Notes under the pieces: generated by a model
The model's database searches: none
What the model was told of the DNA's origin: nothing
What the model saw: the letters and a program-made list of their open reading frames with translations, nothing else
Made by a program: the position numbers and the translations under genes
Source of the DNA: Sphyrna mokarran
Taxonomy: Eukaryota
Direction of reading: 5' to 3'
DNA length: 64,000 bases
Assembly (NCBI GenBank): GCA_024679065.1
Contig: JAGIQG010000002.1
Coordinates: 117,862,001 to 117,926,000, forward strand
Shown here: piece by piece, positions 1-64,000 of the stretch
How positions within the stretch are numbered: the stretch's first letter is position 1
Layout of the letters: each line of letters opens with the position of its first letter

Positions 1-1322
1 GCTACAGTGTCTATCGACATTTACTTTTTCATAAGCAGTTTGTTGCTGGCGGAGAGCTTTGGGATATACTGAGAATGTGAAAGGTACTATATAAATGTAC
101 ATTTGTCTATTGTTTAAGATTGCTGTGCCAGCTATTTAATTTCAAACTGACCTCCTCCCTTCATTGAGTTCCAGCGCTGGAAAATGCAACAAATTTTCCA
201 TTTACTTCATCATTGTTGAAACAACTGTTGTAGGGCAGCATAAAAAAATCCCTTCCTATGTTCTAATCTACTGCCATTCATAACGTTTACAAAGAATGGC
301 ATCGAAATAGCAGAGTATTAAGCATTGAGAACATGTAGTGAGGAGAACCTTTAGAAAACATGAGAAGTGGTGATATATAAATCCAAATCTTTATTACTTT
401 CCCTTCTCTTTGTTTCCTCTTCTATCATCCGTTTTTAATTTTTATTTTTCAGTTGTCAATATTTCCTGGTATTGCAATTCCTGGTTCTGTTGTATTTTAG
501 TGAACATTCACCCTGTGCAATTGGATTTGGATAAGACAGTACAGCACTATTAAAAATACAGCCAAACAGAAGCCTGTGTCAAGGAGGTTCATATGACTGG
601 CTGGATATTGTTAATTGTATAGAGTTAATGTAGTGGTTATGGGCACCTGGGGACCTGACAATACACAACAGACGCTGATGAAATGTTTATGTTCTTAGTA
701 AATAATTCCGACTGAGCAATTCTTTGTTCGTTCTCCAAAGACCATTTACAGCCCCAAAAAAGTAGTCGGCTGCTGTTCAGCTGTTAACTTGCAAGGGTTG
801 TATGTCACTAGCTGCTGTGTTCAATTGAAACAGGTGGTCTTATAATGGGACAGTGAGTGGGTACTCACTTCATTTTGTTTTCAGTGAAGAAATGCCTTAA
901 CAAAAGGCTTGTGTTTAATGTAGCTGTACACCTGCTCAGTGAGTCTATTGGGTAAAGAGAGCTGAGTCCCTGGCCAGAATTTTCCAGCCCCTCCCGCTAG
1001 CAGGATTTCCCATCCCTCCAAAGTCAGTGGACTTTTGGAATGACTTGTCGGTTTGGAGCCAGATAATCCTAGCCTCTGATTCTCCTAAAGAGGGTCAAAG
1101 AATCAGTGTAAAAACTTAATTTACAAAAACCTGCATGGATCATTCCTCAAAGAGGCAACATTTGATAAACTAACACCCTTGCTGGTTATGTTGTACAGAT
1201 TATGGCATTAAATCTGTGATTTCGTATTGGATATCTCCTTATACAAGTGGAAGTTCCCAATGACTGGCATTCTGCATTCTAGAAAAATCCTTACCACATT
1301 TTCTAATTATTTTTGTATGTTA

Positions 1323-3235
1323 ATGGATAGCTATAGATTAGCTAGGAAGGAGGTAAAAAGTGAATTGAGGAGAGCTAAGAGGGGACACGAGAAGATGTTG
1401 GCGGATAGGATTAAGGAGAATCCTAAAGCTTTCTTTCGATATGTTAAGAATAGAAGATTGGTTAGGGCAAGATTAGGGCCAGTCATAGACAGCAGTGGGA
1501 AGTTGTGCGTGGAGCCTGAAGAGATTGGTGAGGCACTGAATAAATATTTCTCTTCGGTATTCACGCAGAGTGCTGGACATGTAGCTATGGAGAACACTGA
1601 GGTACAGGGTTGCAAATTGGGAAGTATTGTAGTAGATAGGGAGGATGTGTTAGAAATTCTCGAGGGTTTGAAGTTGGATAAGTCCCCTGGGCCGGACGGG
1701 ATATACCCTAGGATTCTCTGGGAGGCAAGAGAGGAGATTGCAGAGCCTCTGGCTCTGATCTTCAGGTCCTCGTTGGTTACGGGTGTTGTTCCGGAGGACT
1801 GGAGGATAGCGAATGTGGTCCCATTGTTTAAGAAGGGGAAGAGAGACCTTCCAGGGAATTATAGGCCAGTGAGTCTTACTTCTGTTGTGGGCAAGGTATT
1901 GGAGAGAATTATTAGGGATAGGATTTAGTTATTTAGAGAGAAATGAATTGATTGGGGATAGTCAGCATGGTTTCGTGAAGGGTAGGTCATGCCTTACTAA
2001 CCTCATTGAGTTTTTTTGAGAAAGTGACCAGAGAGGTGGATGGGGGTAAGGCGGTTGATGTAGTATATATGGACTTTAGTAAGGCTTTTTATAAGGTGGC
2101 CCATGGAAGACTTCTACAGAAAATGCAGATGTGTGGAATAGAGGGTGATTTAGCTAATTGGATTAGAAATTGGCTGGCAGATAGAAGACAGAGGGTGGTG
2201 GTTGATGGGAGATATTCATCGTGGAGTTCGGTGACGAGTGGTGTGCCTCATGGGTCTGTTTTGGGGCCCCTGCTGTTTGTAATTTTTATAAATGATCTGG
2301 ATGAGGTATTGAAGGATGGATTAGTAAATTTGCAGATGACACTAAAGTCGGTGGAGTGGTAGATAGTGAAGAGGGGTGTTATAGTTTGCAGAGAGACTTG
2401 GACAAGTTGCAGAGCTGGGCCGAGAGGTGGCAAATGGAGTTTTATGTGGAAAAGTGTGAGGTAATGCACTTTGGCAGGAACAATAAATGTGTAGAGTATA
2501 GGGCTAATGGTAGGGCTCTTAATAGTGTTGAGGAACAGAAGGATCTTGGTGTATGTGTCAATAGATCCTGAAAGTAGGCAGTCAAGTGGATAAAGTTGTT
2601 AAGAAGGCTTATGGAGTCTTAGCTTTTATTGGTAGGGGGCTTGAATTTAGGAGCCGCAGCATCATGTTGCAGCTGTACAAAACTCTAGTGCGGCCGCACT
2701 TGGAGTATTGTGTGCAGTTCTGGTCGCCACATTATAAGAAAGATGTGGAGGCATTGGAGAGGGTACAGAGGAGGTTTACTATGATGTTGCCTGGTATGGA
2801 GGGCAGGTCCTATGAAGAGAGGTTGAAGGATTTGAGGTTGTTTTCGTTAGAAAGGAGGCGGCTAAGAGGGGATCTTATTGAAGCATATAAGATGATTAGA
2901 GTTTTAGATAGGGTGGACAGTGATAGCCTTTTTCCTAGGATGGAGAAAGCTAGCACGAGGGTACACAACTTTAAATTAAGGGGTATGAGTTATAGGACGG
3001 ATATCAGAGGTAGGTTCTTTACTCAAAGAGTGATTAGGGAGTGGAATGCCCTGCCTGCAGCTGTTGTAGATGCGCCAAGTTTGGTGGCGTTTAAGAGGTT
3101 AGTTGATAAGTATATGGATGAGAAGGGAATGGTTTAGTTAGGGGGGGCATTGCTTTTTATTTTGGTCGGCGCAACATCGAAGGCCGAAGGGCCTGTTCTG
3201 TGCTGTATTGTTCTATGTTCTATGTTCTATGTTCT
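1323..3235 (+). mobile_element. Young 5'-truncated CR1-clade LINE (ORF2 reverse transcriptase half + 3' UTR + (TTCTATG)n tail)
   Basis: ORFs 1227-3137 give CR1 RT motifs ([52 protein letters not shown]) split by small indels. Ends in TTCTATG repeats. Nearly identical to the minus-strand copy at 51841-55893. Confidence 0.95.
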
Positions 3236-38473: not shown

Positions 38474-39618
38474 CATAATGTCCAGATGACAATACTGTCA
38501 GATTCTCAATACTGTTGAATGCAGTATTCACTTTAAAAATGGCGCCAGCACATACCATGGCATGACCTGATATCACCTCCGATGTCTGTATATCTGCTTC
38601 TGCTCTCTCTGTGTTTGGTCCCTGCACCTACTGACTCTTAGTTGGCCAGCTGCTGGTAGATCACGTTCAGCTTGTTGCTCTGAGTTCAAGTGGTGGGACC
38701 TGTTGCCTGGCCACAATATTCAAACTGTAGTTCCACCTAGATGACAATTCCCTAATTTTACAGTAGAATTTGAATAGGATTTTGTTTATTCAAAGAGACA
38801 AAGTTACTGCAATATATAAATGATAACCACTACCTACAAGGTGACACCATGCATCTGGACTGGTAGTAAATATTTTAACCTGAACCAATCCAAATATCTG
38901 AAGTGGGATTAGGATATTGATACCTGTTAGGGTCCACAATTAAATATTACCCTCAGTCAAAAGTCTTACAGGTGATTGTAAATGTTACCCACAAAAGAAT
39001 TATGTATACTTAAGTGCTTGATTTAGGAAGTAAAGAAGCAAGCAGATCAGTTTGAAAGATCGTAGGTTGATTTTTTTAATACTCAAATGGAGAATTGTAA
39101 GAACACATTCTTATATACCTACAATCATGACACTTATAAGATTGCTATGTTTTGGATTGTGGACTCTAACAGGCACCAATATCCTAACCCCACTTCAGAC
39201 ATTTGGATTGTTCAGGTTAAAATGTTAACCACCAGTCCAAATGCATGGTGTCACCTTATAGGTTTATCATTTATATATTGCAGTAACTTTGTCTCTTTGA
39301 ATAAACAAAATCCTATTCAAATTCTACTGTAAAATTAGGGAATTGTCATCTAGGTGGAACTACAGTTTGAATATTGTGGCCAGGCAACAGGTCCCACCAC
39401 TTGAAATCAGAGCAACAAGCTGAACGTGATCTACCAGCAGCTGGCCAACTAAGAGTCAGCAGGTGCAGGGACCAAACACAGAGAGAGCAGAAGCAGATAT
39501 ACAGGCATTGGAGGTGATATCAGGTCATACCATGGTATGTGCTAGCACCATATTTGAAGTGAATACTGCATTCAACAGTATTGAGAATCTGATTGTAATG
39601 TGTTATCTGGACTTTATG
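38474..39618. repeat. Long inverted repeat: arms ~38474-38940 and ~39156-39618, ~215-bp spacer
   Basis: Direct reverse-complement match, e.g. TGTTGCCTGGCCACAATATTCAAACTGTAG versus CTACAGTTTGAATATTGTGGCCAGGCAACA. Confidence 0.97.
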
Positions 39619-42789: not shown

Positions 42790-43587
42790 CCAGAGAACAG
42801 TGACCACAATACCACACAACTCTGCCATAGCAACCTCTGCAAGACGTGCTGGATCATCGACATGGATGACATCATCAAACGTGAGAACACCATTCACCAG
42901 GTACACGGTACATACTCTTGCAACTCGGCTAACGTTGTCTACCTAATACGTTGCAAGAAAGGATGTCCCGAAGCATGGTACATTGGGAAGACCATGCAGA
43001 CACTATGACAGCGGATGAATGAACATCGCTTGACAATCACCAGGCAAAACTGTTCCCTTCCTGTTGGCGAACACTTCAGCGGTCACGGGCATTCGGCCTC
43101 CAACCTTCAGATAAACGTTCTTCAAGGGGCCTTCACAACACACAACAGCGCAGAGCCGCTGAGCAGAGACTGATAGCCAAGTTCTGCTCACGTGAGGATG
43201 GTCTTAACAGGGATCTTGGCTTCATGTCACACTATCTGTAACCCCCATGACTTGCCTGGGTTAGCAAAAAACCACACTTACTGTGCCGTCTGGAGACAAT
43301 ACACATCTCTCTAACCTGTGCTCAGTGCTCCTTCCACTTACATTGTTAGCCACTTTAAGACTTGAATAGCAGGTTAGGGGTAAAGATTTGCATTCTAATC
43401 AGTAATCTGTAAACAGTCTGTGCTGGTATGTGTGCTTTTGGAGACCAGAACACCTCATTCGCCTGACGAAGGCTATAAAGCTGAAAGCTTGCGAGTTTAC
43501 TATCAAATAAATCGGTTGGATTTAAAACTGGTATTGCAGACTTCTTACTGTGTTTGCCCCAGTCCAATGCCGGCATCTCTACATCAT
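42790..43587 (+). mobile_element. 5'-truncated Penelope-like element (GIY-YIG endonuclease + 3' pseudo-LTR), Neptune-like
   Basis: Translation CHSNLCKTC...SCNSANVVYLIRCKKGCPEAWYIGKT.QTL*QRMNEHR...PVGEHF...EQRLIAKF...GLNRDLGFMSHYL*. One CGA>TGA-type stop at 43006 and one frameshift. A Cys-rich linker precedes the GIY-YIG domain. Confidence 0.92.
43457..43496 (+). ncRNA. Minimal type I hammerhead ribozyme motif in the PLE pseudo-LTR
   Basis: ATTCGC-CTGACGA-A-GGCT(ATAA)AGCT-GAAA-GCT-T-GCGAGT: stem I, core, stem II and palindromic AGCU stem III. Confidence 0.75.
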
Positions 43588-43699
43588 AAATATACGGGGT
43601 TACAGGGATAAGGCTTGGGTAAGATGCTTTCTCAGAGAGTCAGTGCAGACTCAACGGATTGAATAGCCTGCTGCAATGCCCCAGAAGACTGGCTGCTGC

Positions 43700-51924: not shown

Positions 51925-54710
51925 CAAAACCATTCCCTTCTCTTCCATATACTTATCAATTAACCTCTTAAACGCCACCAAACTTGGCGCATCTACAACA
52001 GCTGCAGGCAGGGCATTCCACTCCCTAAATCACTCTTTGAGTAAAGAACCTACCTCTGATATCCGTCCTATAACTCATACCCCTTAATTTAAAGCTGTGT
52101 CCCCTAGTGCTAGCTTTCTCCATCCTAGGAAAAAGGCTGTCACTGTCCACCCTATCTAAACCTCTAATCATCTTATATGCTTCAATAAGATCCCCTCTTA
52201 GCCGCCTCCTTTCTAACGAAAACAACCTCCAATCCTTCAACCTCTCTTCATAGGACCTGCCCTCCATACCAGGCAACATCCTGGTAAACCTCCTCTGTAC
52301 CCTCTCCAATGCCTCAACATCTTTCTTATAATGTGGGGACCAGAACTGCACACAATACTCCAAGTGCGGCCGCACTAGAGTTTTGTACAGTTGCAACATG
52401 ATGCTGCGGCTCCTAAATTCAATCCCCCTACCAATAAAAGCTAAGACTCCATATGCCTTCTTAACAACTTTATCCACTTGACTGCCTACTTTCAGGGAAC
52501 TATTGACACATACACCAAGATCCTTCTGTTCCTCAACACTATTAAGAGCCCTACCATTAGCCCTATACTCTACACATTTATTGTTCCTGCCAAATTGCAT
52601 TACCTCACACTTTTCCACATTAAACTCCATTTGCCACCTCTCGGCCCAGCTCTGCAACTTGTCCAAGTCACTCTGTAAACTATAACACCCCTCTTCACTA
52701 TCTACCACGCCACCGACTTTAGTGTCATCTGCAAATTTACTGATCCATCCCTCAATACCCTCATCCAGATCATTTATAAAAATTACAAACAGCAGGGGCC
52801 CCAAAACAGACCCCTGAGGCACACCACTCGTCACCGAACGCCACGATGAATATCTCCCATCAACCACCACCCTCTGTCTTCTATCTGCCAGCCAATTTCT
52901 AATCCAATTAGCTAAATCACCCTCTATTCCACACATCTGCATTTTCTGTAGAAGTCTTACATGGGCCACCTTATCAAAAGCCTTACTAAAGTCCATATAT
53001 ACTACATCAACCGCCTTACCCCCATCCACCTCTCTGGTCACTTTCTCAAAAAACTCAATGAGGTTAGTAAGGCATGAACTACCCTTCACGAAACCATGCT
53101 GACTATCCCCAATCAATTCATTTCTCTCTAAATAACTATAAATCCTATCCCTAATAATTCTCTCCAATACCTTGCCCACCACAGAAGTAAGACTCACTGG
53201 CCTATAATTCCCAGGAAGGTCTCTCTTCCCCGTCTTAAACAATGGGACCACATTCGCTATCCTCCAGTCCTTCGGAACCACACCCGTAACCAACGAGGAC
53301 CTGAAGATCAGAGCCAGAGGCTCTGCAATCTCCTCTCTTGCCTCCCAGAGAATCCTAGGGTAAATCCCGTCCGGCCCAGGGGACTTATCCAACTTCAAAC
53401 CCTCGAGAATATCTAGCAAATCCTCCCTATCTACTTCAATACTTTCCAGTTTGCTACCCTGTACCTCAGTGTTCTCCATAACTACATTTACATCACCCTG
53501 CGTGAATACCGAAGAGAAATATTTATTCAGTACCTCTCCAATCTCCTCAGGCTCCAAGCACAACTTCCCACTGCTGTCTATGACTGGCCCTAATCTTGCC
53601 CTAACCAATCTTCTATTCTTAACATATCTAAAGAAAGCTTTAGGATTCTCCTTAATCCTATCAGCCAAAGTCTTCTCGTGTCCCCTTTTAGCTCTCCTCA
53701 ACTCCCTCTTTAGCTCCCTCCTGGCTAATCTATAGCTATCCATTGCACTAAATGAGCCTTCAAGCCTCATCCTGACATAAGCCTCCTTTTTCCTTTTAAC
53801 CAGCAAATCAACTTTTTTCGTGCACCAAGGTTCTCTTACTTGACCATTTCCTCCTTGCCTGACAGGGACATACTTATCAAGGACCCGCAGCAGCTGCTCC
53901 TTGAATAAGCTCCACATTCCAGATGTTCCCAGTCCCTGTAGCTTCCTAGTCCAATCTATGCACCATAATTCTCTCCTGATGGCCTCATAATTACCCTTCC
54001 CCCAGCTATACCTACTGCCCCCAGCTTCATGCCTATCCCTGTCCATCACTAAGGTGAACGTAACCGAATTGTGGTCACTATCACCAAAATGTTCACTAAC
54101 TTCCAAGCCTAACACCTGGTCTGGCTCATTGCCCAGCACCAAATCCAATGTAGCCTCACCTCTAGTTGGCCTATCTACATACTGAGTCAAAAAAACCTTC
54201 CTGCACACTCTGTACGAAAACTGACCCCTCTAACGAGCTAGAGCTATAGCTATTCCAATCAATATTAGCAAAGTTAAAGTCCCCATCACAATTACCCTAC
54301 TACTTTCACTCCTAATCAGAATTGACTTTGCAATCCTTTCCTCAACCTCTCTAGAAATATTAGGAGGTCTGTAAAAGACTCCCAACAGGGTGACCTCTCC
54401 TCTCCTGTTTCTAATCTCAGCCCATACTACCTCAACAGACAAGTCCTCATCAAATTTCTTTTCTATCACCGTGATACAGTCTTTGACCAATAACGCCACT
54501 CCTCCCCCCCTTCTACCTCCTTCTCTACTCCGACTAAAGCATTTGAACCCCGGAACCTGCAACATCCATTCTTGTCCCTGCTTACCCAAGTCTCTGAAAT
54601 GGCCACAACATCGAAGTTCCAGGTACTGGTCCAAGCTGCAAGTTCCTCCCCCTTATTGCAAATACTCCTTGCATTAAAGTATACGCATTTCAAACCATGC
54701 CCCACCCCAT
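51925..54710 (-). pseudogene. CR1 ORF2 (APE endonuclease + reverse transcriptase), four single-base frameshifts in this sequence
   Basis: [51 protein letters not shown] and FADD motifs over ORFs 54466-54705, 54230-54634 and 52025-54208. Confidence 0.93.
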
Positions 54711-59625: not shown

Positions 59626-60047
59626 AAGCAACTTACAAGCACTGCAATTGAACTGTGGTGTTATCACAGAGTTATAACAACCTCAATTGCTCAGATACAG
59701 CACTTCCCCATAGGAAGTACATGATCAGGAACTTCAAAGGGAAAGTCCATGTTATCTAAATAGTGACACAAACTTATACACAGTTGGGGAAATGTATTTA
59801 TTTTAAGGGTGACATTTTCCTGTTTAAAAAATTAGCAGTATATCTTTTCATTGTCTATATAGGTGCTCCATTAATGTGGAATGATGGTGGAGAAGGAACC
59901 TCAAAGCCATAACCAACGTTTTCACTGGTTTGGAGGCAGTTTCCATGTTCCAGTAGATGCTGCAGAAAGAGAGCCTTTCTCTTGTGTATTTATTAAATGT
60001 GTGGCATGAATTTTGTTTTCAAATCAGAATTACTTTTGTTTCTAAAG

Positions 60048-60168
60048 GCCGTGAATACACTATTCCAACCCTGATGCATCGATTCCTTGCAGAGATGGTG
60101 GATTTTTTAATCCTGTTCCTGTTAAAAGCTGTCGTGGTGCTGACTGTGATGCATATCTGTGGGATCAA
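60048..60168 (+). CDS. FAM8A1: FAM8A1 coding exon 2 (start of RDD domain): (G)REYTIPTLMHRFLAEMVDFLILFLLKAVVVLTVMHICGI(K)
   Basis: TTTCTAAAG acceptor, GTAAGT donor, phase 1 to 2. Closely matches vertebrate FAM8A1 GREY.IP.L.HRF.AEMVDF. Confidence 0.95.
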
Positions 60169-62022
60169 GTAAGTAGTAGAACTCTTATTTACAACTGCAG
60201 CTTTTGTTCATAGATAATGTTGTAACACTGGTAAATCATGAAGGGGAGCATATCTATCATTTGAGTTGACCATGAATGAATCTAAACTGACAGTCAGTAC
60301 ATGAAATTGTCAGTTGCTAATTTACTTTATATTAGAATTGCTGCAATTTTTGATGAGCACCATAAGGTGATGTTTTGATGTCCAGTTTCTGTTTCTGTAC
60401 AAGGAAACTGTATGCATGTGTGTGCGCAAGTTCAGGATTAATTTCTCCAAGTATTTTGCTTGCAATTTTGCTCCTACTTTCAGCTGGAGTAACATGTGCC
60501 TAATAAAAACAGTGGGAAGTGACATTTTACACATCCTATTCTCAGGCATTTAAATAAAATTCAGCTTTTTGCACATGTTTTATTTTTGGGAATATTCCTT
60601 AATTTATTTTGGAGCTGGGCGATGCTGTCTAGATAGATGGATTGCAGATTGGGAGTGTGTTAGAGAACTGCAGCCTTTCTAAGGAAGTCATAAATTCACA
60701 AAAGCTGAAAATGAAATGGTAATAGGTGATACCAGTGAAATCCTGTGACTTACACTTTGGTTTGTGACAAATGGGTGACCCAGAAACATTCTAAACAGAA
60801 ATATTTTCTCAGCAGATTAATGATGTATTTCACCAGACCTGTAAGAATGAGTGTTTTTAAAAAGCAAAAACTCTTAAAAGCATTTAAAGGTCTGCCTAAT
60901 TTATTGATGCTTTGTGATAATCTATAGGATTTGGTACGATGTAGCATATTGTAGTTTATATGGTTCTATACAGTGCTGGAGAAGGTGGTGATCTCTAGGA
61001 CTCTGTGATACCATGTCATGTGATCTCTAGGACTTTACTCATTTATATAGAATGTGATTAAGTAGCCGTTGTTTTTAAGGACTTTGTCAGATCAGTATCT
61101 TTCAAGAATGATTTTTAAAAATCCCTTTTTAGCGAGCAGGAAACTGGTCACTACTGTAAGAAGGAGACGGTGAGCTTTTTTAAATACTCACTGACAAAAA
61201 AAGGTTAATTTAATCCACCATTGCAAGTTTGAGACAGTGGGTCACTGCTGATGTTTGAGGGAAAGAGATCCCACGTAGAATTGCAGGACTTCAGTGCAGA
61301 AGGAGGCTATCGTTCTATCATGTCCACACTGCTTTCCAAATGAACAATTCACGTAATGCTATTCTCCCACCTTCTCAAGCTGGCTGATTCTTCCTTTTCA
61401 CTTGAGCTTAATTCCCTTTTGAATATTTAACTTAAACCTGCTTCCTCTACACTCATAGGTTGTGTATTCTGGACCTTAATCACTTGCTACATGAAAAAGT
61501 TTTTCCTTGGTTCACTTTTATTTTGTATGCTACTTTAAATCTGTGCCCTCTCTTGATCCCTTCATGAGTGAGAATTATTTCTTCTTACATTCTGTGTCAA
61601 AATCCCTCGTGATTTTAAATATCTCAATCAGATGTCCTCTCAGCCTTATCTTTTCCAAGTCAAACAGTTTTAACTTCTCCAATCCATCTTTGTAACTGAA
61701 GTTCCAGAGAGTTCCACATTCGTGAATGTTTTCTGCACTCACTCCAATGCTTTCACACCTTTCCTGAATTGTGGGGCCCAGAATTGGATTCAGTTCTCCA
61801 ACTGACATCATAACTTTTTATAAAATTCATTTATAGCATGGGCATCACTGGCTAGGCCAGTATTTATTGCCCATCCTTAATTGCCCTTGAGATGATGAGC
61901 TGCCTTCTTGAACTGCTACAGTCTCTGTGGTGCAGATACACTTACAAAGCTGTTACATTAGAGTGTGCTCAGTAAAGGTTTACAACGCCAATTTTAAATC
62001 CAACCAATTTATTTGATAGTAA

Positions 62023-62062
62023 ATTTGCGAGCTTTCGACTCTATGGCCTTCGTCAGGCAAAT
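62023..62062 (-). ncRNA. Minimal type I hammerhead ribozyme motif (left arm)
   Basis: Exact reverse complement of 62811-62850. Confidence 0.8.
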
Positions 62063-62810
62063 GCAGTGTTCTGGTCTGCAATAGCATTCATATCAACACA
62101 GACAGTCACAGATTGCTGATTAGAATGCGAATCCTTACATCTAACCTGCTATTCAAGTGTTAAAGTGGCTAACAATGTGTGTGAAGGGAATCCTGAGCAT
62201 TGGTTAGAGAATTGTGTGTTTTCTCCAGACAGCACAGTAAGTAAGGTTTTTTGCTAACCCAGGCAAGTTACGGGGGTTACAGATAGTGTGTCATGAAGCC
62301 AAGATCCCTATTAAGACTGTCCTTGTGTGCGGAACTTGGCTATCAGTCTCTGCTCAGCGACTCTGCGTTGTCATGTGTCGTTCCGCACACGAGGACGGCC
62401 TTAATAGGGATCTTGGCTTCATGACACAGGGGTTACAGATAGTGTGTCATGAAGCCAAGATCCCTATTAAGACCGTCCTCGTGTGCGGAACGACACACGA
62501 CAGCGCAGAGTCGCTGAGCAGAGACTGATAGCCAAGTTCCGCACACATGAGGACAGTCTTAATAGGGATCTTGGCTTCATGACACACTATCTGTAACCCC
62601 CGTAACTTGCCTGGGTTAGCAAAAAACCTTACTTACTTTGCTGTCGGGAGAAAATACACAATTCTCTAACCAATGCTCAGGATTCCCTTCACACACATTG
62701 TTAGCCACTTTAACACTTGAATAGCAGGTTAGATGTAAGGATTCGCATTCTAATCAGCAATCTGTGACTGTCTGTGTTGATATGAATGCTATTGCAGACC
62801 AGAACACTGC

Positions 62811-62850
62811 ATTTGCCTGACGAAGGCCATAGAGTCGAAAGCTCGCAAAT
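62811..62850 (+). ncRNA. Minimal type I hammerhead ribozyme motif (right arm)
   Basis: ATTTGC-CTGACGA-A-GGC(CATAGA)GTC-GAAA-GCT-C-GCAAAT: perfect 6-bp stem I, intact core, predicted cleavage after C62844. Confidence 0.82.
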
Positions 62851-64000
62851 TTACTATCAAATAAATTGGTTGGATTTAAAATTGGTGTTGTAAAACTTTA
62901 CTGAGTTTACCCCAGTCCAACGCCGGCATCTCTACATCATGACATTAGTGTGTTCCAGGATTTTGACCTAGTGACAGTGAAGGAATGGCGATATATTTCT
63001 AGATCAGGATGATGTGTGGCTTGGTGGGGAAGCTCTGGTGATGGTGTTCCCATGTGCCTAATGCAATTGTTTTTCTAGTTGGTAGCAGTCATGGGTTTGA
63101 AAGGTGCTGCCAAGGAATCTTGGTAATTTCCTACAATGCATCTTAAAGGTGTTGCATACTGTTGCCACTTTGCCAGTGGTGGAAGAAGTGAATGTTTGTG
63201 GAAGGGGTATCAATTAAGTTGGTTACTTTGTCCTGGATGGTATCAAGCTTCTTGTATTGTTGGAGCTGTACTGAACAAAGCTAGGGGAATTTCACAGTAA
63301 CTTCATTGCAATGTTAATGTAAGCCTTGCTTGTAACTAATGAATAAACCTTTTAAAAACTTTAAAAAAAAAGTGGAGATCGTTCCATCATGTTGCTGACT
63401 TATGCCTGGTAGATGGTGGGTTGGCTTTGGGACTCAGGAAGTGAGTTACCCTCTACGTGATTCCTAGCTTCCTACCTGTTTTTGTAGTCACTGTATTTAT
63501 ATGGTTGGTCCAATTTAGTTATTGGTTAATAATAACCTCCAGCACGTTGATAGTGGATGATTCAGCAATAGTAATGCCATTGAATACCAAATGGCAATGG
63601 TTAGATTCTCTCTTGTTGGAGATGGTCACTGCTTGGTGAATGTTACTTGCCACTTATCAGTCCAAGCCTGGATATTGTTCAGGTCTTGCTGCAATTGGAT
63701 ATGGATTGCTTCAGTGTCTGAGGAGTCACAAATGGTGCTGAATGTTGTGCAATCGTCAGCAAACATCCCCACTTCTGTCCGTATGATGGCAGGAAGATCA
63801 TTGATGAAGCAGTTGAAGATGGTTGGACCTAAAACAGTATTCTGAGGAACTCCTGCCCTGGAACTGAGATGACTGACTTCTAACTACCCCTATCAATCTG
63901 CCTTTGTTTAGGTATGATAGCAGAGAGTTGATTTCCATCGACACTGTTTTGTTGAGGCCCCTTGAAGCCCAGTCTTTCATGGGCAGTTGCTCTCACCTCA

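Follow-up and report, generated by a model that had tools for sequence, protein, structure and literature searches.

An inverted layout with a tail on one side only has been published for Penelope-like elements (PLEs) (PMC3846280; PMC8557442; PMC2377424), and self-priming on an antisense template has been proposed for inverted copies (PMC3846280). In the case of Poseidon PAc from Anolis carolinensis, both target strands are cut and extended in vitro, two reverse transcription (RT) start sites bound the tail, and the hammerhead ribozyme is protein-assisted, requiring the PLE protein; the steps after priming are unvalidated for PLEs (PMC11167929). With a single minimal hammerhead no cleavage was observed, and hammerhead pairs on opposite strands, 100–700 bp apart, are mentioned (PMC4209133). 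Inverted Penelope copies in transgenic Drosophila yield siRNAs that match the inverted regions, and these fail to silence Penelope efficiently (PMC3681739). Penelope is a massively hyper-edited repeat in lizard, and hyper-editing is abundant in the brain of the elephant shark (PMC5625713).

Here we describe a palindromic insert in a 64,000-nt window of the Sphyrna mokarran genome (contig JAGIQG010000002.1, positions 117,862,001 to 117,926,000 of the forward strand). We hold with considerable confidence that it goes back to one recent insertion, without an ORF, of a Neptune-type PLE in head-to-head, one-tail form, and that it is likely a neutral by-product of integration.

Position and Anatomy of the Insert

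The proteins closest to host exon 1 are shark FAM8A1. Exon 2 is found at 60044..60168 (+; start approximate), and exon 3 is reached some 5.3 kb downstream of the window; because exon 2 ends at about 60168, the insert falls within intron 2, where a previous interpretation made from the letters alone (the sequence-only reading) had placed it. It sits on the sense strand of the gene. Intron 1 holds a 734-aa open frame (52025–54229, minus strand), an inverted copy of which, 95–99% identical, is present some 50 kb upstream at 1322–3223; the frame resembles what we take to be a CR1-type LINE reverse transcriptase.

Arm alignment reproduces the geometry, mismatch count and identical run of about 230 bp given in the sequence-only reading: a left arm of 461 bp (61968–62428) and a right arm of 463 bp (62443–62905) flank a 14-nt loop (62429–62442), differ by eight substitutions and one 2-nt indel, and share a longest identical run of 230 bp terminating at 62885. 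The target-site duplication (TSD) is imperfect, the left copy (61955..61967, +, 13 nt) being 2 nt longer than the right (62942..62952, +, 11 nt) through an indel. Among the DNA compared, six other copies of the host repeat have both flanks adjacent, with gaps of 1–11 nt, and represent empty sites, in agreement with the proposed insertion into an old LINE. The window also contains a second long inverted repeat (38489–38826 / 39264–39601; 338-nt arms, 96% identity, 437-nt spacer), which is unlike the Penelope palindrome, shows more inverted similarity in its spacer by eye and is perhaps a TIR element.

When numbered against the near-full-length copy L051, with 0 as the tail end, the insert runs from −35 to −448 in inverted orientation, then from −402 to −354 in sense, from −337 to −402 inverted again, and finally from −448 to 0 in sense. 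Its components are an inverted, tail-less arm corresponding to the element 3′ end (61968..62379, minus strand; family positions −448 to −35); nested piece B (62380..62428, +; −402 to −354), which joins the left arm through a 2-nt microhomology; nested piece C (62429..62491, minus strand; −402 to −337, inverted), whose first 14 nt form the palindrome loop; a direct arm (62492..62905, +; −448 to −35); and a 36-bp tail (62906..62941, +) ending at the start codon (ATG) of the L051 ORF. The tail is carried by the right arm and is missing from the left. Both it and the nested inversion (62380–62491), which gives the two arms the same inner inversion, had been overlooked previously. A remnant of the GIY-YIG endonuclease domain, its final 30 codons plus the stop (62504..62596, +), matches the ORF end of longer copies. 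The region 62492–62610, which holds the four junctions of the locus, is predicted to fold as a stem-loop in the element RNA; it coincides in part with the one-arm haplotype block described below and is possibly a site of RT pausing or switching.

Support for the Assembly

The left junction is spanned (61896–62008) with 0 differences by a contig from sequencing run X1, possibly the source sample, at a depth of 16.5 compared with 13–15 in the flanks. The palindrome centre and right junction are absent among the eight pieces listed of 10,431 (100% placement) and are thus unconfirmed by reads, which is the point in favor of a fold-back artefact of assembly or sequencing. We consider such an artefact exceedingly improbable, since the arms differ at eight sites plus the indel and both have changed with respect to the family; the flanks are unmirrored and rejoin into the host repeat around the TSD; the one-sided tail is typical of the family; and the left junction is present in run X1. 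Joints in X1 that seemingly skip the insert have a different sequence and resemble further copies of the host repeat. Run X4, which is only presumed to be RNA, shows no coverage of the unique flank, a result that counts in neither direction.

The Element Family

The longer copy L036 contains an RT domain (Pfam RVT_1, E = 2e-9). C-terminal to the RT, L062 displays GIY-YIG motifs (VVYLIRC...WYIGET plus the ORF end), recognized by motif rather than by a profile hit, and the linker CHSNLCKTC, of the form CX4CxxC, occurs in L062 and in a sister copy within the window. Since CX2-5CxxC between RT and endonuclease is a feature of the Neptune/Nematis clade (PMC8557442), the family, an EN+ Penelope-like element, is classed by the linker motif alone as Neptune/Nematis-type. 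RT, linker, GIY-YIG, hammerhead-bearing pLTR, one-sided tail and TSD were all found, and the Penelope identity proposed earlier stands.

The sister copy (42793..43588, +) is a solo, 5′-truncated member of an older subfamily. Its segment 43135–43588 is 85.7% identical to the palindrome arm and includes its own intact minimal sense hammerhead (43457–43496, +). Its end lies some 480 bp upstream of the FAM8A1 start codon, within the promoter or close to it. The window arms do share differences from this sister, as had been remarked; these reflect subfamily age, the arms diverging from the young majority sequence by 1.3% and 2.2% and the sister by 12.6%. Concerted evolution inferred from the sister was rejected for the same reason. 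Two other candidates were also discarded. A non-LTR retrozyme requires head-to-tail tandem hammerhead units (bioRxiv 10.64898/2026.07.22.740005), whereas the units here are head-to-head and retain ORF sequence; a MITE-like self-copying palindrome is contradicted by an inner junction found at one locus only and by truncation pairs that differ among 60 loci.

Hammerhead Motifs and the Predicted Hairpin

The insert carries a minimal type I hammerhead at 62811..62850 (+), with cleavage predicted after 62844, consisting of a 6-bp stem I, a CUGACGA core, an extra A, a 3-bp stem II, GAAA, and a loop-less helix III formed by the palindromic AGCU. Its exact mirror, 750 bp away at 62023..62062 (minus strand), is antisense in FAM8A1 pre-mRNA; the two opposed ribozymes reported before are thus present as motifs, with an intact core on each strand. 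Rfam, at gathering and E-value thresholds, detected no hammerhead and returned only chance matches to miRNA hairpins. Free folding gives another structure than the hammerhead, which is not the minimum-energy fold (−5.5 vs −8.3 kcal/mol; z about 0).

The motif is complete in 57/74 young and 14/43 older copies, and stem I shows a compensatory pair in the older subfamily; the hammerhead was thus selected in source elements. Selection after insertion was rejected: across 63 arms, with CpG and subfamily sites excluded, inserted hammerheads show 25 non-CpG substitutions in 1886 as against 174 in 21,088 elsewhere, so that they decay no more slowly than flanking sequence. Each transcript of the palindrome has one sense hammerhead, and no second same-sense core is found on the plus strand between the FAM8A1 start and stop codons. 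Because a minimal hammerhead needs a same-sense partner or protein, the lone motif here is expected to be nearly inactive, leaving little activity for masking to remove, and masking by the left arm probably removes little.

Folding of the plus-strand pre-mRNA predicts a single long hairpin of about 460–470 bp in which all 40 hammerhead bases pair with the other arm, in line with the suggestion that the sense ribozyme would be buried. By analogy with the published cases, ADAR editing of the insert in FAM8A1 pre-mRNA is likely and some siRNA is possible, which would hold for numerous copies of this kind; such dsRNA processing would be expected here rather than new, and this copy gives no sign of selection.

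Frequency of the Head-to-Head Layout

In the 2.77-Gb assembly, a first look returned 2354 candidates with a young query and 7236 with the sister query, figures that are not copy numbers. A tail-less inverted arm is present in 27 of the 40 best-matching young loci (window included). By a strict automatic rule the layout is seen in at least 60 of 117 young loci (22/40, 16/37 and 22/40), these being the 40 best plus 77 from three other queries, with about 14 places from one query left out; loci were chosen by similarity and are not a random sample. The older subfamily, reached with the sister query, has an inverted piece within 1.5-kb flanks in 16/30 loci. Shorter arms terminate between −25 and −57, longer ones between 0 and −5, and TSD-like repeats of about 10–14 nt surround most pairs.

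Fifty-one pairs are clean, that is, without a large central insert. Besides the window locus, eight of these have spacers of at most 50 nt with arms of 593–1087 bp, and the window pair, with an arm divergence of 1.5%, ranks 11 of 51. That the palindrome is special is not supported: head-to-head is the family's commonest product and the arm identity is unremarkable.

Several further arrangements were observed. Palindromes tighter or longer than that of the window occur at L057, L109, L127, L163 and L168 (arms 915–1087 bp, spacers 8–45 nt); L163 and L168 are symmetric, yet their arm divergence is 2.4–2.8%. Independent mini-palindromes of about 210–250 bp, built of two hammerhead-bearing ends, lie a few kb from large ones near L049, L055, L062, L119 and L127. 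Finally, L046, L052 and L061 are partial tandems whose tail runs into the next ORF start, associated with a near-full-length copy that is direct or inverted.

Arm Comparisons across the Family

Of the 51 clean pairs, 22 have the longer arm on the tail-less side, 23 have it on the tailed side and 6 have arms of near-equal length; overlaps or gaps at the junction are mostly within 10 nt. Since the tail sits on the shorter arm in the first of these classes, fold-back of a single cDNA would be insufficient for it; priming from both target ends at two start sites would yield all arm-length classes. In the likely mechanism, the element enzyme would cut both target strands about 11–13 nt apart and each cut end would prime reverse transcription, one at either of the two start sites that delimit the tail; both cDNAs would stop early and then be joined. 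There are more near-symmetric pairs than expected (6/51 within 20 nt vs 1.0, p = 0.0004), and pairs with longer spacers have more divergent arms (rho 0.42, p = 0.002, 51 pairs), so that fold-back, arm-to-arm conversion or faster loss of tight palindromes acts on a subset to which this locus belongs.

Within the last 200 nt of the first 26 pairs, recurrent non-CpG alleles occur 29 times in both arms and 11 times in one (8.3 and 52.3 expected); upstream of that point they occur 6 and 50 times, respectively (5.5 and 50.9 expected). The contrast between the two regions (p = 4e-10, 26 pairs) treats linked sites as independent and so is overstated. For 38 new pairs, F is 0.97, 0.83 and 0.82 in the last 200 nt and 0.51, 0.44 and 0.45 beyond, a gradient that persists but is weaker upstream than in the first set; some near-indel sites in the new pairs may be alignment noise. 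Because subfamily alleles are shared at the outer ends and only half upstream, many pairs are not simple fold-backs. The combination of outer-end sharing and half-independent upstream arms appears, on these alignments, to be a new family-level observation; the literature searched, most subscription papers and supplements lying outside it, contains no report of template sharing between paired PLE arms.

A linked block at −454/−446/−403, typical of one pLTR lineage, is found in both arms of 10/10 pairs of that lineage. The 43 other informative pairs carry it in one arm (9), in both (0) or in neither (34); 7/60 pairs without block coverage were dropped, and two of the nine were found by a block-carrying query. 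Derivation of all pairs from two unrelated RNAs was rejected, as mates share derived alleles at 2.85/kb and non-mates at 0.61/kb.

One scheme, which we offer as doubtful though worth stating, is that PLE integration resembles retroviral strand transfer occurring twice at once, each cDNA jumping independently to the 3′ end of element RNA. Both cut target ends would be primed on one pLTR to give two short strong-stop cDNAs, which if joined unjumped would form the mini-palindromes of about 240 bp; otherwise the two would each transfer to an element RNA at its 3′ end, often not the same RNA for both. Strand transfer would leave arms sharing the last 200 nt and half-independent upstream, and the ORF haplotype block in one arm only, as in 9/9 informative pairs. 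Short pieces often start near the 5′ side of the hammerhead (13/30 at −117 to −147), which fits a strong-stop product. Alternatively, the paired arms may come from two RNAs of a pool whose pLTRs turn over with time. The allele pattern may also be due to later gene conversion; concordance at the outer ends argues against conversion centered on the hairpin.

Origin of the Window Insert

The centre of the locus would additionally record template switching or fold-back around −448 to −337. Each window arm has the other as its best match (rank 1 of 24), and the two share a pair of rare non-CpG alleles as well as the same inner junction, from which it follows that they likely derive from one template; dual priming on ordinary RNA leaves the rare alleles and the inner junction unexplained. 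If differences were scattered uniformly, a 230-bp run would have P = 0.019, although 3/25 other pairs equal it. A 2-nt deletion is present in the left arm and both inner pieces and is missing from the right arm, and a G>A change occurs in both outer arms only. With two mismatches allowed, a search for a parent carrying the inner junction found only the window locus in the 2.77-Gb assembly. Inner pieces are also seen in a few other pairs, e.g., L172.

We give an even chance to serial fold-back of one cDNA strand, in which synthesis would run from the tail to −448, snap back to copy −402 to −337, and snap back a second time so that the whole arm was copied. The two arms have −448 as their common stopping point and share the −402 inversion, the order of the pieces fits on the bottom strand, and the mutual best match and the junction without a parent elsewhere agree with it. 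It has to contend with a central join lacking microhomology, with copying that stops at the family's usual −35 site, and with the spread of the 2-nt deletion and the G>A change, which would need later conversion or recurrent mutation. As a local route it is compatible with dual-priming integration. The canonical −35/0 ends, together with the shared junction, the rare alleles and the differences between inner pieces and outer arms, would instead be accounted for if both arms had been reverse-transcribed from read-through RNA of an older palindrome already holding the inner junction. This second-generation copy we judge unlikely, since the junction is unique in 2.77 Gb and any parent would need to have disappeared, escaped assembly or diverged by more than two mismatches. 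Neither route accounts cleanly for which of the four inner-segment copies carry the 2-nt deletion.

The sequence-only reading had gone on to propose a selected self-silencing cassette, in which host transcription would give a ribozyme-masking hairpin and small RNAs acting in trans against the family. The predicted 470-bp fold with its fully paired hammerhead, the intronic position in a conserved gene, and the Drosophila siRNAs and lizard hyper-editing cited above are in its favor. Set against these are the inefficiency of the same siRNAs against Penelope, at least 59 other loci of the same shape (eight of them tight with longer arms), hammerheads without excess conservation, and a gene whose coding span offers no same-sense partner to a motif that is inactive or protein-dependent when single. 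The older-subfamily origin of the differences from the sister also deprives the cassette of its special standing, and we regard it as very unlikely. We prefer the neutral insertion.

Comparison with Known Systems

The window locus is an ordinary member of a published insertion type. With the inverted-pLTR EN+ PLEs (Pen2a_Av and Pen2 derivatives, PMC3846280; PMC8557442; D. virilis Penelope, PMC2377424) it has in common a head-to-head, inverted, 5′-truncated copy, a one-sided tail of 30–40 bp, a TSD, a palindromic junction and a pLTR hammerhead. It is unlike them in being ORF-less, in having both arms truncated at the same point, in its nested central double inversion and in its location in a vertebrate intron. 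The hammerheads resemble the minimal motifs of metazoan PLEs (Cervera and de la Pena 2014, PMC4209133) in their full core, extra base between 9 and 10.1, G10.1-C11.1 pair and palindromic, loop-less helix III, whereas stem II is shorter (3–4 bp), stem I has 6 bp and the motifs are 750 bp apart. Like Poseidon PAc (Frangieh et al. 2024, PMC11167929), the family has a tail with two fixed ends; it belongs to a different clade and the ORF ATG lies at the tail end, not inside the hammerhead. Inverted pairs and two-template arms are not treated in the parts of PMC11167929 covered. The consequences of dsRNA were demonstrated with RNA data in the siRNA (PMC3681739) and hyper-editing (PMC5625713) studies, whereas at the window locus they are proposed only.

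Alone, the window locus matters little, as it is one of a large class. The family-level arm pattern bears on the question of how PLEs build inverted copies, for the paired arms in shark genomes record the template used by each end, and if half of thousands of copies are hairpins, they would impose a large load of ADAR substrate on shark introns. A further parallel is L1 twin priming, where both target ends are primed and an inverted 5′ segment results inside one TSD. Twin priming copies two non-overlapping parts of one RNA, whereas in the insert described here both arms copy the same 3′ region.
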